From the NCBI RefSeq assembly GCF_000027125.1, contig NC_017626.1: a DNA stretch of 64,000 nucleotides; one strand, written 5' to 3'. Below are positions 40,620-54,254 of this stretch, one piece after another (the stretch's first letter is position 1; each line of letters begins with the position of its first letter). Origin of the DNA: Escherichia coli 042. GTDB taxonomy: Bacteria > Pseudomonadota > Gammaproteobacteria > Enterobacterales > Enterobacteriaceae. A program made the translations under genes and the position numbers. The notes under the pieces are model-generated. The model did not search any database, was not told the DNA's origin, and was given only the letters and a program-made list of their open reading frames with translations.

Positions 40620-43015
40620 TTAATACTCTCCCCCATTTGCGCATCAGTTAATTCTTTATGCCAGAGACGAAGATTTCTCAAATGGCCGAATAGATGACGA
40701 GTTCCCGATGTGGCTTGACCTCCAATTCGAATAAAGGTCCGTGTTTTTACGCCCGTCCACTCCGTTTTCATAGTTTTAGTAGCCTCACCGTTAGAAACTA
40801 CTCGTTTAGTACCATCAGAATAAATATTAAAACCACCAATGAATTTTCGAACATCAGCTCGACCAGCAAACACACTAGAAACGTAAGTACTTGTCGACGC
40901 TTTATAAGTTTGCATATAAAGCTGACCGTAATATTTCTCAGTTGTGTTAAAAGCGTATGTAATTGACTCAATAGGTGGCACACCAGAAAAATCAAAAATA
41001 CGCGGTGCTACATTAGGAGGAATATCGCCCCAAATTCTATTAACCTCGACAAGACACGTAAGCGGTCTATTATAGATATTATTTTTAGTTGGAATCGTCA
41101 CCATATCACTGGAGCGGGTTGCGGGTGCAGTTGTCGTAATAACAAAAGATGAAGCACATCCGCCGTTTTCAAATTGTGGTGTTGCAAGGTAAATATAATC
41201 TCCCGCTTCAGTTATACCACCTTTTTTCGGCGCATACTGAATCATTGCGCCAATTAAGGTTTCACCTTCAACAGCTTCTATAGTTGCCTCATAGAAAATC
41301 CACCCTGTAACCGGATCTTTAGTTGCAGTAGCTGCTATTCTATTGGCTGCCCCGCCAGTTTTTTCTATTATCAGAGTTCCGAAAGTTAAATAAGCATCTC
41401 CTAAAAATGTATAAACCGACCCATCGTATTTTTCAAAACGCAAACGACAACGAAGACCATCAGGAGCTTTAACCCTGCATGAAACAGTGCAATACTTATT
41501 ATCGCCACTAACATCAATCCCCCGGGATGCACTGCATCTATGCAGACTAAGTGCAGATGATTGTCCTGTCATATTATCTTTTGTTCGCATTTTGGCATAT
41601 GAAAAACCAAATTCATCAACACCATTATTAGTTTTATCGATATTGCTGGTACTCGTCCATTCAGCGGGAGTATTGGATTTAACAAAATAGTTAGTGCGCT
41701 GTCCTTCAATCAATAAACCTTCTTTTTCAAATCGTGGCTCATCAATTTTAGCAACACTAAATACGCCTGATTTATTGATATATGTGGCAGTTGATGCGCG
41801 TTTAAACTTAACAACCTTGTCGCCAGGCATCGTTATTTCATCATCACCAATAACAATTTTTTTATATGACGGCGAAAAGCCCGTAATCATATCCAGTGAA
41901 TCGTTAAACGGTATCCACACATCAGGCAGTGGCTGTAAGACATATTTATACGGCTCTGCTGCCTGACTTGCATACTCTCTGGCTGCATCTTCGCTTGCTT
42001 TAGCTGCCGTCTGGCTTGCTGCCGATGCTTTCGCTGAGTTCGCAGCCGCTGTTTCGCTCACCTTTGCGTTGGTTTCACTGGTTTTTGCTGCTTTTTGACT
42101 GTTAGCTGATGCAGTTGCAGAAGCAGCCGCCGCGCTTGCAGAACTGGCTGCGGCACTCTCGCTTTGGGCCGCTGCATCCTGACTGCTTTTCGCCGCAGTT
42201 TCACTGGCTTTGGTATTCGTTTCGCTGGTCTTCGCTGCCGCCTGGCTGGACTTTGCGTTAGTTTCACTCGTCTTCGCAGCTTTCTGGCTGTTAGCCGCAG
42301 CAGTTGCTGATCCAGCTGCTGAAGTCGCAGAACCGGCTGCCGCGCTCTCGCTTTGGGCTGCTGCAACCTGGCTGTTTTTTGCTGCAGTTTCACTGGCTTT
42401 AGCATTCGTTTCGCTGGTTTTCGCTGCCGTCTGGCTGGACTTTGCGTTGGTTTCGCTCGTCTTTGCGGCTGTCTCGCTATTTTTCGCGTTGGTTTCTGAT
42501 TTTTTGGCTGCTGTCGCGGAGTTTGCCGATGCAGTCTTTGAGGTCGCTGCCGCCTGTGCACTATTAGCTGCATTCGTTTCTGAGGTTTTCGCCGCGTTCT
42601 TTGATGATGCCGCTGCAGTTTCGGATTTCTTTGCCGCCGCTGCGCTCTGAGAGGCGGCTTCGGCGTTGCGTGCCACTTCTTCCACCATTGCCTCAAAACG
42701 ACGCAATGCCTCCGGCATGACATCATCTTCCGTCATGGCACCGAGAAAATCATTCAGCGTACCTGGTCTGGAGCCTTCATAGACGGTAATGGTCCCGGCA
42801 TGTGAAGGCGGAAAACCTTCAACCAGCAGGGTGACGCTGTACTGGCCATACTCAACATCCATGCTGTAACGTCCGGCTTCATCCGGATTTTCAGAAGCCA
42901 CCGTGTTCACCAGTACCGTGGTGCTGTTACGCTTTGCCTTCAGTTGAATAGTGCAGTTCTGTATTGGTTTTCCCGCACCATCTTTCAGCACACCTGAGAT
43001 TTTTACTGCTGCCAT
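40616..43015 (-). CDS. stf: side tail fiber protein with lambda Stf-like N-terminus, internal Ala/Ser-rich repeats and a distinct C-terminal domain
   Basis: N-terminus (MAAVKISGVLKDGAGKPIQNCTIQLKAKRNSTTV...SMDVEYGQYSV) closely matches lambda Stf as I remember it; the track start is a GTG two codons upstream. Confidence 0.85.
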   Translation of the reverse strand: MAAVKISGVLKDGAGKPIQNCTIQLKAKRNSTTVLVNTVASENPDEAGRYSMDVEYGQYSVTLLVEGFPPSHAGTITVYEGSRPGTLNDFLGAMTEDDVMPEALRRFEAMVEEVARNAEAASQSAAAAKKSETAAASSKNAAKTSETNAANSAQAAATSKTASANSATAAKKSETNAKNSETAAKTSETNAKSSQTAAKTSETNAKASETAAKNSQVAAAQSESAAAGSATSAAGSATAAANSQKAAKTSETNAKSSQAAAKTSETNTKASETAAKSSQDAAAQSESAAASSASAAAASATASANSQKAAKTSETNAKVSETAAANSAKASAASQTAAKASEDAAREYASQAAEPYKYVLQPLPDVWIPFNDSLDMITGFSPSYKKIVIGDDEITMPGDKVVKFKRASTATYINKSGVFSVAKIDEPRFEKEGLLIEGQRTNYFVKSNTPAEWTSTSNIDKTNNGVDEFGFSYAKMRTKDNMTGQSSALSLHRCSASRGIDVSGDNKYCTVSCRVKAPDGLRCRLRFEKYDGSVYTFLGDAYLTFGTLIIEKTGGAANRIAATATKDPVTGWIFYEATIEAVEGETLIGAMIQYAPKKGGITEAGDYIYLATPQFENGGCASSFVITTTAPATRSSDMVTIPTKNNIYNRPLTCLVEVNRIWGDIPPNVAPRIFDFSGVPPIESITYAFNTTEKYYGQLYMQTYKASTSTYVSSVFAGRADVRKFIGGFNIYSDGTKRVVSNGEATKTMKTEWTGVKTRTFIRIGGQATSGTRHLFGHLRNLRLWHKELTDAQMGESIK
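42040..42520. repeat. tandem direct repeats (about 183 bp unit, about 2.6 copies) inside the stf coding sequence
   Basis: Near-identical DNA blocks (for example GCAGTTTCACTGGCTTT...GCTGGACTTTGCGTT) recur at about 183-bp spacing and encode repeated KTSETNAKSSQAAAKTSETNAKASETAAK...SESAAA blocks. Confidence 0.6.
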
Positions 43016-43024
43016 ATCCACTCC

Positions 43025-43746: not shown

Positions 43747-46700
43747 TCAGCTAATCGTGATGCCTGCAGTGGCTTTCTTCATCACAACAACCAGCAAATC
43801 GCTGATACTTGCTGTGGGATACCAGCCATTTACCAGCCATGCTGACACCGAAAACTCCAGTGTCATGTGACCGTGACCGGCAGGCATATCAATAACGCCA
43901 CTGTAAATCAGCGTATTATCCAGCGCGGTACGGTTATAAATTTCAGCACCGTTTTTCCGCACTATCAGACGGCATGAGGAGTAAATATCAGTATGCTCTC
44001 TCTCATGCTTAGCGCCACTGAATGCCACAGCTGGAATAACAATTTGCCGGTCAAACGGCTGATCGTCATAAACCCTGACGGTAATGGTCCCTGATGGCCA
44101 CCGCTCCGGTGCCCGGGAGTCACGGGGGAAAGCTTTGCCCACTGTTTTAACGAGATCGCCTTCAATCTGGTTCGCGGACAGTTTTCCCAGAACCCGGCAG
44201 TTCTCGTTAATCGTGACGTTGTTGAGCGTCCCGGAGTTCGCATTCACGTTACCGCTGATATCGGCATTTTTCGCCGTCAGCCGCCCGTCCGGTGTCAGGG
44301 AAAATGCCGGAGGATTACCGCCGCTGGTAATGGTGGGGGCCGTCAGGCGCTTCAGGAACACGTCGTTCATGAATATCTGGTTGCCCTGCGCCACAAACAT
44401 CGGCGTTTCATTCCCGTTTGCCGGGTCAATAAACGCGATACGGTTAGCGGCAACCAGGAACTGGCTCAGTTTGCCTTCCTCCGTATCCTCCATGCTGAGG
44501 CCAAGCCCCGCGACATAATGTTTGCCGTCTTTGGTCTGCTCAATTTTGACGCCCCACATGGCATTCCATTTATCGTTGGCGTCCTTCCACTCTTTCGAAA
44601 ACTCCTCCAGTTTGCTGGCGTTATCTTCCGTCAGCTCAAAGTTTTCCAGCAGTTCCTTGCCGAGATGCGTTTTATTGATCAACCCTTTATAAAAATTCAG
44701 ATAACCTTCCGCATCATCGCTCGCCCGACCAACGGCCTCCACAAATGCCGATTTACCAACGGTGTTCACGCTGCGGATATAAAAGTAATAATCATAACCC
44801 GGCTTAATATTGCTACTGGCGGCTATCCAGTACAGCGCCGTACCAAGATAACGCGCGCTGGTTTCAACCTGCCTGATATCGATAATCCGCTTTTCCGAGA
44901 ACCAGAACTCAAACTGCACCGTCGGGTCATATACAGCCAGTTTCGGGACCGCTGTTATCTGAAAATACCCTGGTATCAGTTCAATAGTGACAGGCGCTGC
45001 CGGTGCCGCAATCCGGAACGATACCGATGCCGGATCGCCCTGCTGCCCCCACGCATTTACCGCCCGGACCGTCAGCGTGTAACGCCCCAGCGCCAGTTGC
45101 CTGAAGCGGTATGTGGTTTCCGTCGTCCGGGCCATGCTGACCAGCCGCTCACTGCCGTCGTCCGCTGCCACGGTAAGGCGAAGCAGGAAGCTCACGCCCT
45201 TCACCACCTTCGGCGTGTCCCATCGCGCCAGCACCTGATATTCCCCGCTGTCTGCGGTGACTTCGGCGGTCAGGTGCTGCACCGCTGGCGGCGTGACACC
45301 ATTCACCGTGCCGCTCTGGTCGCCGTCAAAGTGCGCCCCGTTATCCACGATGGCTTCTTTTTCCGGTACATGCTGCACGGCGGTGATGGCATACGTACCG
45401 TCATCGTTCTCCCGGATACTCACACAGCGGAACAGGCGCTGGCGCAGCGTCGGCAGCTTCAGCCCCCATACGCTGTATTCAGCAACACCGTCAGGAACAC
45501 GGCTCACTTTTACCTTCACGCCGTCGGTGACGGACTGAACCTCCACGCTGACCGGATTGCCACTTCCGTCAACCAGGCTTATCAGCGTGGTACCGGAGGA
45601 TGGCAGCGTGATTTCACGGTCGAGCGTCAGCGTCCGGGTCTGGCTGTTCACCGCCAGCACACGACCACCGGTGCTGATACCGGCATAGTCATCATCACAG
45701 ATTTCAATGACATCGCCCGGTACATGGCGAAGCCCTTCTGCGCCCACGCTGAAGTCCACGGTCTGCGTTTCCAGCAGTTCCGTTTTAATCAGCCACAGCC
45801 CGGCGCGGTGTGCCTGCCCCCGGCTGGTACAGCCAAAGGCATCCATCTTCGTGACGTTACGACCGTAACGGGCAATGGCCTGCGTATCTTCAACAAGCTC
45901 TGTCGCCGTCTCCCAGCCGTTGTTCGGGTCAATCCAGTTCACCTCAACGGCATTATGGCGGTCCTTCAGGGCGCTGAAGCTGTAGCGGAACGGCGCGCCA
46001 TCATCCGGCATCACCACATTACTGCGGTTATAGGTCCACACCTTATCTGATGGTCGGTCCTGCACGAACGTCAGCGTCTGCCCGTTCCATACCGGCATAC
46101 AGCGCATCGCCGAGCAGAAATCACTGAGAACATCCCACGCCTTACGCTGTGTGGTCAGCCAGGCATTACAGGTGATGCGCGGCTCCGTGCCACCAAAGCC
46201 ATCCGGCACCGACTGGTCGCAATTCTGGCCGATGACATACAGCGCCCATTTGTCCACATCCGCCGCACCGAGACGCTTCCCCATGCCGTAGCGCGGATGG
46301 GTCAGCATATCCCACAGACACCAGGCCATGTTGTTGCTGTATGCTGGCTTAAACGTTCCGTCCCAGATACCGCTGTATTGCCGCGTCTGCGGGTTATAGT
46401 TCGACGGCACCTGCAGAATGCGCCCGCGAAGATGATAATTACGGCTCACCTGCTGACTGCCGAACTGTTCCGAGTCCACCTGCACGCCGACCAGTGCCGT
46501 GTTCGGGTAGCACTGTTTCACATCGATGATTTCGGTGTATGACGACCAGAGCGTTTTGTTCTGCAGCTGGTCTGTGGTGCTGTCCGGCGTCATCCTGCGC
46601 ATCCGGATATTAAACGGGCGCGGCGGCAGGTTACCCACCACCACCGAGGCCAGATACTGCGAGGTGGTTTTGCCCTTAATGGTGATGTCTTTTTCCGTCA

Positions 46701-47142
46701 CCCAGCCACCGTTACGCTGTATCTGAACCAGCAGGCGGACTTCCGACGGATTCCTGTCCCCCTTTGAGGTGGTTTCCACCAGTGTCTGCACGCCGAAAGT
46801 AAAACGCAGACGGTCAATGTTTGCCGACGTGATGGTCCGGGTGATCGGCGTGTCATATTTCACTTCTGTACCGAGCACCGTCTCGGAGCCGGAGGATTCA
46901 AACCCCTCCGGCGGAGTCTGCTCCTGCTCACCTGCCCGGAACACCACCGTGACGCCGGAGATGTTGGTATTCCCCTCAGTGTCCAGCACTGGCGTACTGT
47001 TCAGCAGCACGCTTTTTAATCCATCCACCGGACCGTCAATCGGCCCTTCGCTGATGGCATCGATCACACTCAGCAACTGCGTGGACTTCAGGTTGTCCTT
47101 CGCTTCGCGCGGGGTATGCCCCTTACTGCTGCCTTTACCCAT
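43747..47142 (-). CDS. J: tail tip host-specificity protein (central tail fiber)
   Basis: 1131-aa ORF, the size of lambda J, in the lambda position after I. Confidence 0.93.
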
Positions 47143-52761: not shown

Positions 52762-52801
52762 TCTCCGGACGAAAAAAAACCGCCGAAGCGGTTATGTTGA
52801 C

Positions 52802-53092
52802 TCACTGAGACACTATTAAAAGCGCGTTTTCCAGTCCAGCAAATGGATCTGATACGCCTTCTGTCTGCTCCTTCTCCCACTGAAGAAGCGCATCATTCAG
52901 TGGCACTTTGACCCCCTGCGCACCGTAAACAGCTGAAACAATCTGGGCAGCCCGGATATCAGCCCGTTCGTCCCCCAGCGGGCTGAACCTGTCAAATTCT
53001 GCCCACATCATGATTTCTGATGCGGACATTTCCCGGCGTAACTCTGACAATGTGCGCCCCATCCTGAGCGCCAGCATCATCAGAAAACGCAT
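52802..53092 (-). CDS. T: T portion of the G-T tail assembly chaperone fusion (expressed by -1 frameshift from G)
   Basis: ORF in the -1 frame relative to G, directly downstream of a slippery heptamer; this frame is open from the slip site into the ORF. Confidence 0.7.
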   Translation of the reverse strand: MRFLMMLALRMGRTLSELRREMSASEIMMWAEFDRFSPLGDERADIRAAQIVSAVYGAQGVKVPLNDALLQWEKEQTEGVSDPFAGLENALLIVSQ

Positions 53093-53103: not shown

Positions 53104-53490
53104 CTACTTTTTTTTAACCTCGCCGGCATCACTGATCAGTTCCAGAGACTGCCGAAGAAGCCGCGCATGCACCGGGCCATACACGGCAATCACCTGTTCA
53201 CGATCATCCACTGAAAATACAGGTTGCAGTCCGGTATCACACAGAACATCGATGAACAGTTCAACATCCGCTTCCAGATTTCGGCGGGCGCGCTCCGCAA
53301 CGGATAACGGTGTCTCATCATCTTTTGCTTTAACGATCTCCTGCCAGCGCAACCAGGCTTCTGCAGAAGGTTCCCGTAATACAACCGTTGCCCCTTCCCA
53401 TTCAGGCACATCAACAGTTTTATGGCGAAACCCCGACATCGTTGCCAGTGCCAGATTACGGATATTTTTAGTCATCACATCTATCCTCAT
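53104..53490 (-). CDS. G: tail assembly chaperone G
   Basis: 128-aa ORF ending GEVKKK* at a run of A, upstream of the tape-measure gene. Confidence 0.75.
   Translation of the reverse strand: MRIDVMTKNIRNLALATMSGFRHKTVDVPEWEGATVVLREPSAEAWLRWQEIVKAKDDETPLSVAERARRNLEADVELFIDVLCDTGLQPVFSVDDREQVIAVYGPVHARLLRQSLELISDAGEVKKK
53107..53113 (-). promoter_or_regulatory. programmed -1 ribosomal frameshift site (A AAA AAG) joining G to T
   Basis: Minus strand reads GTT AAA AAA AAG TAG; a slip on A AAA AAG gives ...KK-VALPG-MRFLMML..., continuous with the T ORF. Confidence 0.6.
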
Positions 53491-54194
53491 TAACTGACGG
53501 TAACAGTGCAGGAAGTAGAGGTCACCTTGTTAACAGGACTTGCTGAATCAGAAATCTCGCAGGTATATGCACCCGCATCACCGGATACTGCCGATGCCTT
53601 ACTGAACGTTGCCGCCGTCTGTCCGGAAACAGGAGAACCACCTTTCTTCCAGACATAAGAATAAGGCGGCACACCACCCGCAGCCTCAACCGCCATTTCA
53701 AGTTTCGCTCCGGAAGCAACCCGCAGCGTGCTTTTTAAATCGGCCTTCACTTTCAGCGGCTCTGTCGTCAGCACAGGTTTACCTTTCAGGCGCAAGGAAA
53801 ACGTTGCAGCCACAACACCATTGGTTCCTGCAGACCAGGTATGCTGACGCACCTCTGCCATAAAGGTAAATCCGTTGCCTGACGGAAAAATAACTTTAAA
53901 GCCATACGTGGTGTCATTGTCATAGGCACTGCGCAACGCGTTCTGGGCAGCATTCAGATAAAAGTTGCCTGACATGGAAATCTCTGAAGCAGCCCCAAGG
54001 CCGTTAATATTTTCCTGCTCAACAGAACACAGCGTGGTGACATCAATATCCTGCTTTTGTCCTGCGGTAAACTGCACCTCTTTGATTGTACAGCTCAGGC
54101 CAAGATAGCTGGCAGAATCCAGGGTTTCTGCTGTTACCGGTGCAGACGAAATCATAATTTTCGTCAGTTGCGAACGCTCAAAATTAGAGGACAT
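53490..54194 (-). CDS. major tail protein with C-terminal Ig-like domain
   Basis: 234-aa ORF immediately upstream of G; the C-terminal 90 aa look like a Big_2-type Ig domain (PPYSYVWKKGG...GAYTCEISD); not lambda V-like in sequence. Confidence 0.65.
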   Translation of the reverse strand: MSSNFERSQLTKIMISSAPVTAETLDSASYLGLSCTIKEVQFTAGQKQDIDVTTLCSVEQENINGLGAASEISMSGNFYLNAAQNALRSAYDNDTTYGFKVIFPSGNGFTFMAEVRQHTWSAGTNGVVAATFSLRLKGKPVLTTEPLKVKADLKSTLRVASGAKLEMAVEAAGGVPPYSYVWKKGGSPVSGQTAATFSKASAVSGDAGAYTCEISDSASPVNKVTSTSCTVTVS

Positions 54195-54254
54195 ACTCGT
54201 CTCCTGAAAATAAAAAAACCCGCCAGCGGCGGGTGGGTAAAATCATTAATGACC

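Follow-up and report, generated by a model that had tools for sequence, protein, structure and literature searches.

A tail protein gene in the window (the whole stretch of 64,000 nucleotides of Escherichia coli 042 DNA that was analysed) ends in a segment that a preliminary description had read as a Big_2-type immunoglobulin (Ig)-like decoration domain, of a kind sometimes added by frameshifting. The locus raises three questions: to which Ig family the domain belongs, how it is joined to the tail protein, and what it might do on the virion. The gene and its parts were placed as follows.

53490..54194, minus strand: major tail (tube) protein gene, a single ORF of 234 codons plus a TAA stop
53775..54194, minus strand: tail-tube domain, residues 1-140, with the invariant LRLKGKP motif at its end
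53754..53774, minus strand: variable linker VLTTEPL, residues 141-147, where conservation drops after KGKP and alignment A1 shows length variation and gaps
53493..53753, minus strand: C-terminal domain assigned to the Ig superfamily (I-set/C2-like, Hoc/pb10-type), residues 148-234, from Pfam Ig_2/Ig_3, PDB matches and the structure model

The product of 53490..54194 is the tail-tube subunit of an HK97-like siphovirus prophage in E. coli. PHROG 158 (major tail protein) matched residues 1-234 at 1.9e-109, and HK97 gp12 (NP_037706), likewise 234 aa long, was aligned without gaps over 234/234 aa, through both domains, at 73% identity. Full-length homology of this kind, in a gene flanked by the tail completion gene on one side and the G/T chaperone genes on the other, identifies the protein as a major tail subunit of the gp12 type. 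E. coli Ecol_448 carries the gene on its chromosome with 100% DNA identity, and the product there (WP_000097526.1) bears the RefSeq name "immunoglobulin domain-containing protein". Among 5426 complete E. coli genomes, 898 had a near-identical gene, on the chromosome in every case, and so did 11 sequenced temperate Escherichia phages; 893 of these 898 genomes retain an intact Ig domain. The carrier genomes came mostly from human and animal sources, with river and seawater isolates also represented. A protein homolog search (5.8 billion proteins) additionally located homologs in prophages of the plant-associated genera Pectobacterium, Dickeya and Erwinia. An Ig domain on an HK97-like tail tube is already known, is annotated in RefSeq and is ordinary.

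Two alternative readings of the gene were considered and set aside. Homologs of 251 aa (P0002, P0005) suggested an upstream start, which was rejected because the ATG at 54246 is out of frame and 54194 is the first start after a stop. A match in E. coli to the tube half only (H26) was examined as a natural domain-swap variant and was rejected, the gene being split by IS2. In E. coli KN12-1 (L002; NZ_AP041125.1, 4722745-4728133) IS2 is inserted near the tube/Ig boundary of the orthologous gene, and what remains is a tube-part pseudogene plus an 'immunoglobulin domain-containing protein' of 68 aa with an annotation of its own.

The tube domain was characterized by alignment and by modelling. In alignment A1, 47 invariant columns fall within it. 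An AlphaFold2 model of the protein was built from a 39-sequence alignment, and the best Foldseek matches of the whole model were to full-length lambda gpV (8iyk_D, 7e-9; 7t4f_A, 1e-8). The tube domain also matched gpV (8iyk_D, 7e-9, probability 1.0; N-domain entry 8k36_A, TMt 0.54), its TM-scores being modest because a long loop was left unmodelled. This loop, residues 46-67, had low pLDDT and probably orders in the assembled tube only (PMC9022992). The Pfam tube families that were scanned (Phage_TTP_11/12 and Phage_tail_2/3) all scored under their cut-offs, for example Phage_TTP_11 with 22.4 vs 28.4 bits.

The C-terminal part was examined with profiles, PDB sequences and the same model. Pfam Ig_2 matched residues ~150-233 at 29.3-30.5 bits, above its cut-off of 27. 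Ig_3 reached 28.0-30.6 bits against a cut-off of 30 and passed for the 99-aa fragment only, and I-set, at 19.7-22.6 bits, fell slightly short of its cut-off of 23.7. The assignment to the Ig clan (Ig_2, PF13895; Ig_3, PF13927; I-set, PF07679) is firm, while the exact sub-model is borderline. As I-set stays below its cut-off, the subtype is drawn from the sister models Ig_2 and Ig_3 and from homology to gp12, Hoc-like proteins and pb10. PHROG Hoc-like head decoration families matched the Ig region (E 1.5e-22 and 5e-15). Over residues ~140-233 PDB sequence matches were obtained to Sf14 gp20 (9c2d_S, 8.5e-28), T5 pb10 (8zvi_a, 6.6e-16; 5lxk_A, 2.4e-14) and human carcinoembryonic antigen (4e-9). 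Entry 9C2D is gp20 of Shigella phage Sf14, a Hoc-like decoration protein (PMC11821841), and 5LXK is the C-terminal Ig domain of T5 pb10 (PMC5292684).

In the AlphaFold2 model residues 148-234 had a pLDDT of ~95, with nine predicted beta-strands and a strand-only secondary structure. Foldseek superimposed this part on the Ig C2 domain of human MALT1 (3bfo) with a TM of 0.89 and an rmsd of 1.5 A over 90 columns; further matches were titin I-set domains, CD22, and the decoration proteins of phages Moo19 and N4. On this model, residues 148-234 are predicted to form a two-sheet Greek-key beta-sandwich. The hallmark residues W182 (strand C) and D206-x-G208-x-Y210-x-C212 (strand F) were 89-97% conserved among homologs. 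The predicted B strand (LEMAVEA) contains no Cys, so that the canonical B-F disulfide cannot form; its absence is plausible given that the protein folds in the bacterial cytoplasm. Two Cys residues of the Ig domain are conserved, C212 (89%, in the YxC motif of strand F) and C229 (94%, in strand G). T5 pb10 differs in that only the G-strand Cys is present, whereas the window domain has both the F- and the G-strand Cys.

Much of the preliminary description was borne out by these results. The peptides that it quoted (PPYSYVWKKGG, GAYTCEISD and TVTVS) all occur in the translation of 53490..54194 on the minus strand. The interval that it gave for the domain, 53490-53790, corresponds to residues ~136-234 plus the stop codon, with the nearest in-frame start at 53789. 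Its central proposal, that the major tail protein carries an Ig-like decoration domain of ~90 residues at its C-terminus, agrees with Pfam, PHROG, PDB and the model alike. It had named two checks, structure prediction and a search for a Big_2 or Ig-like domain. The first returned a beta-strand Ig fold, and the second detected an Ig-like domain (Ig_2/Ig_3) and not Big_2.

The Big_2 label itself had to be abandoned. With hmmscan, Big_2 (PF02368; gathering score 22.8 bits) gave no match at E<=10 to the full protein or to the isolated domain, and none to HK97 gp12; lambda gpV, the positive control in the same run, scored 70.1 bits. Classical Ig_2/Ig_3 matches were obtained in its place, and from its sequence the domain is assigned to the classical Ig-superfamily type, that of HK97 gp12, T4 Hoc and T5 pb10. 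HK97 gp12 shows the same Pfam pattern (Ig_2/Ig_3, I-set just under the cut-off, no Big_2). A 2022 review (PMC9022992, Table 3), which draws on Fraser et al. 2006, places HK97 gp12 with the I-set tail-tube proteins, and lambda gpV and T5 pb6 with the Big_2 ones. According to the same review, phage Ig-like domains had been surveyed in 2006, and the I-set-type Ig domain of gp12 was already catalogued there. Because Big_2 is absent and the review places gp12 as I-set, the window protein joins the gp12 group.

The protein was also compared with other decorated phage proteins. It shares with lambda gpV the two-domain architecture and probably the tube fold, but the two sequences show negligible similarity (24% over 79 aa, confined to the tube part) and the Ig families differ, gpV matching Big_2 at 70 bits and the window protein having no such match. 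The Ig domain of gpV is exposed and dispensable (PMC9022992). With the Hoc-like/pb10-type proteins (T4 Hoc; T5 pb10 CTD, 5LXK; Sf14 gp20, 9C2D) the Ig domain appears homologous at the sequence level, the shared motif being Y-x-W-K-K-G ... S-G-x-T-x-A-T-(F/Y)-x-K ... D-A-G-x-Y-x-C ... S ... T-V-T-V. The Ig domains of pb10 and Sf14 gp20 are solvent-exposed on the virion (PMC5292684, PMC11821841). Those proteins are anchored to capsid hexamers via a separate domain and often carry 2-4 Ig repeats, whereas in the window a single copy is fused to the tail tube. SPP1 gp17.1* resembles the window protein in having an accessory C-terminal Ig-fold domain on a siphovirus tube protein, non-essential for assembly (PMC9022992). 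It differs in that its domain is of the FN3 type and is reached via a +1 frameshift, while the window domain is in frame and of another Ig family. Since the window domain is in frame, every subunit would be expected to carry it.

Frameshifting was examined in the tube gene and in the two frames that follow it.

53104..53490, minus strand: tail assembly chaperone (lambda gpG-like), directly downstream of the tube gene; Pfam Phage_TAC_1, 6e-58
52802..53092, minus strand: gpT-like frame, giving a G-T fusion by -1 frameshift; Pfam Phage_tail_T, 3.5e-19

The suggestion that the Ig domain is added by frameshifting does not apply here, the domain lying in frame within one ORF, as in HK97. Within the tube gene, T TTA AAA at 53739..53733 on the minus strand (codons 152-154, early in the Ig domain) is the sole XXXYYYZ heptamer in frame; chance alone would put ~0.9 of them in a gene as long as this one. 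The orthologs of HK97, Stx2a_F349 and Kp4874-4 lack it, and phage phi467 has T TTA AAC. A -1 slip at this site would remove the Ig domain, giving a 165-aa subunit that ends in ...DLKKHAAGCFRSET. Were the heptamer a low-efficiency slippery site in the sub-clade of the window gene and phi467, the phage could tune the density of its tail decoration, in a mirror image of SPP1 gp17.1/gp17.1*; we give this idea very little credence. A programmed frameshift that adds or removes the Ig domain was rejected on three grounds: the ORF is in frame, the heptamer is unconserved and expected by chance, and the tube-only relatives described below have no hidden frame.

The genuine programmed frameshift of this tail module is, as predicted from the sequence, the usual gpG/gpGT -1 event. 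A slippery heptamer, A AAA AAG at 53113..53107 on the minus strand, lies immediately 5' of the gpG stop codon, and -1 reading past it enters the gpT ORF directly (...MRFLMMLALRMG; junction …KK/VALPGMRFLMMLALRMG…). The HK97 record annotates the same G-T -1 frameshift, and RefSeq lists T as a separate CDS at the identical locus of Ecol_448.

Homologs consisting of the tube domain alone were found as natural variants. These proteins, 147-154 aa long, were 77-80% identical to residues 1-140 by local BLASTP and 72-75% identical over the aligned columns of A1, and they end 6-9 residues past LRLKGKP. On a 1.39-Mb contig (L004) a 147-aa tube-only gene is followed by a 9-bp gap and then by the chaperone gene, in a tail module that is otherwise syntenic. 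No Ig frame was hidden downstream of this gene or in another frame, and the 9-bp gap leaves no room for one. The tube subunit of phage mEp390, at 156 aa, likewise comprises the tube domain alone. Since such tube-only relatives exist, the tube presumably assembles without the Ig domain, as judged from these natural variants; lambda and SPP1 experiments agree that tubes assemble without the accessory Ig-fold domain (PMC9022992). The comparison of sequences identifies the Ig module as an optional add-on.

The two domains have also varied at different rates. Across 35 full-length proteins the tube domain averaged 72.5% pairwise identity and the Ig domain 50.3%. One homolog (P0006) was 84% identical to the window protein in the tube domain and 98% in the Ig domain; another (P0008) was 98% identical in the tube domain and 74% in the Ig domain, the second half of which was again near-identical. 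The discordance between tube and Ig identities in both proteins suggests recombination at or within the module, and the second half of the P0008 domain points to a breakpoint inside the Ig domain. By the Nei-Gojobori method, dN of the Ig part exceeded that of the tube part 1.3-3.7x over ten pairs and 2.0-3.7x in the four comparisons with the window gene; against HK97 gp12 the values were 0.32 for the Ig domain vs 0.14 for the tube domain. For the window gene and phi467, the sole pair unsaturated at synonymous sites and a close one with few substitutions, omega was 0.29 in the Ig part and 0.08 in the tube part. The omega of the Ig part was 0.13-0.29, below 0.3 in every pair, the other pairs being synonymous-saturated (dS >1.4 or undefined). 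As a rough indication from these sequences, the Ig domain appears to be variable and mobile, yet under purifying selection.

In the remainder of the tail module, HK97-gp10_like and Tail_completion_gp17 genes lie upstream of the tube gene. Downstream, the gpG-like and gpT frames are followed by the gene for a tape measure protein of 1077 aa, by M/L/K/I-like genes and by the gene for a tip protein resembling lambda J. The window shares with HK97 this gene order of gp10-like, tail completion, tube, G/GT chaperones with the -1 frameshift, and tape measure genes. The tip protein gene and two genes downstream of it were placed as follows.

43747..47142, minus strand: lambda J-like tip protein with FNIII-A, two Ig_J domains and a C-terminal receptor-binding Ig domain
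40616..43021, minus strand: side tail fibre (phage_tail_N), downstream of the J-like gene
39624..40328, minus strand: 234-aa protein with a Peptidase_S74 intramolecular-chaperone domain, downstream of the J-like gene

The J-like tip protein supplies the further Ig-fold modules carried on the same virion.

Taken as a whole, the protein is an HK97-like tube subunit with a linked Ig domain, and this domain most likely serves as a surface-binding module, an explanation in which we place considerable confidence. Tail-tube Ig-like domains project from the tube and are non-essential for assembly, and their deletion can reduce infectivity; a contribution to adsorption or to mucus binding is the standard hypothesis for them (PMC9022992, PMC5292684). 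In the proposed mechanism the tube domain would build stacked hexameric rings, six subunits to each ring, and each subunit would display one flexibly tethered Ig domain on the tail exterior, by analogy with the lambda, T5 and YSD1 tails. By extrapolation, a tape measure protein of 1077 aa and a lambda-like ring spacing would give ~200 Ig copies per virion. The Ig domains may make weak, multivalent, reversible contacts with carbohydrates of the envelope surface, possibly also with the glycans of gut mucus. In this way the virion would be held near the cell surface, where tip protein J and the side fibres would be likelier to find their receptor. The Ig domain is probably not needed for building the tube, because close relatives lack it. 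Its variability and mosaic exchange, together with the purifying selection on it, are in keeping with an exposed binding module tuned to host or environment. Any benefit of the domain would be conditional, as the tube-only relatives are evidently viable. Argued from analogy, weak multivalent glycan binding that raises productive adsorption is the most likely single role, and we would give it about an even chance of being correct.

A different target for the same exposed domain was considered. Under this explanation, based on the bacteriophage-adherence-to-mucus model, the domain would mainly bind mucin glycans or epithelia in the animal environment, not the bacterium, and would prolong the persistence of virions in the gut. 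By sequence the Ig domain is most closely related to Hoc-like decoration proteins of capsids. T4 Hoc attaches to mucus, and the display of Ig-like adhesins raises epithelial adherence and gut retention (bioRxiv 10.64898/2026.02.02.702849). The human and animal sources of most tube-gene carriers are likewise as this explanation would have them. The presence of the gene in E. coli from river and seawater, however, and of homologs in Pectobacterium, Dickeya and Erwinia argues against a mammal-specific ligand, and a mainly mucosal target, counted within the even chance given above and reached by analogy, seems unlikely to us.

A structural role was also considered, in which the Ig domain would pack on neighbouring subunits or rings and stabilise, stiffen or help to polymerise the tube. 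Purifying selection on the domain would be expected of such a role, and in T5 pb6 and YSD1 the Ig-like domains wrap adjacent subunits on the tube exterior (PMC9022992). Tube-only homologs that are 75% identical in the tube domain, in syntenic tail modules, nevertheless indicate that the tube assembles without the domain. The Ig domain and linker are the most variable part of the protein and are exchanged independently of the tube domain, which ill fits a co-evolving interface, and the C-terminal Ig density is weak and flexible in lambda and YSD1 (PMC9022992). We regard the structural role as improbable. The least credible explanation is that the domain is a functionless passenger, a stably folding, promiscuous module spread by recombination and tolerated on the tube, for although its presence/absence polymorphism in close relatives, its mosaic exchange and the splitting of the tube gene by IS2 in one genome are in keeping with this, an omega of 0.13-0.29 in all comparisons (well below 1), fold-determining residues 89-100% conserved across genera and an Ig domain intact in 893 of the 898 carrier E. 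coli genomes make it very improbable.

A surface-binding module on the tube thus remains our preferred reading. What the analysis adds is a corrected subtype (Hoc/pb10-like, not Big_2), exact domain limits, and natural variants with and without the domain that mark it as an optional module. Carried by roughly every sixth complete E. coli genome and having natural tube-only relatives, this prophage family would offer a convenient system for testing the role of tail-tube Ig domains. Tail-tube Ig domains are very common, and the matter here is mainly one of correct annotation.

Observations on the spacers of the tail module were made in addition. Terminator-like sites numbered 7 in 2 kb, vs 2.0 expected, and two of them were placed precisely.

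54218..54234, minus strand: terminator-like hairpin ACCCGCC-GCT-GGCGGGT plus T-run, just upstream of the ribosome-binding site of the tube gene
52778..52793, minus strand: terminator-like hairpin plus T-run, between gpT and the tape measure gene

In related prophages (L004, 4173..4520; KN12-1 L002, 1..102) gpT and the tape measure gene are separated by a small additional gene, which encodes a zinc-ribbon protein. At that position HK97 (L006, 3204..3392) has the moron gene gp15, which the window lacks. At the corresponding place in the window, 52762..52801, there is a 40-bp spacer with the terminator-like hairpin only. HK97 also differs in having a putative terminator after gp12, which has no counterpart in the window. 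The HK97 record places a 'putative terminator' upstream of gp12, equivalent to 54218..54234, and others at comparable places; from these annotations, the window hairpins are presumably read through by a late antiterminator.
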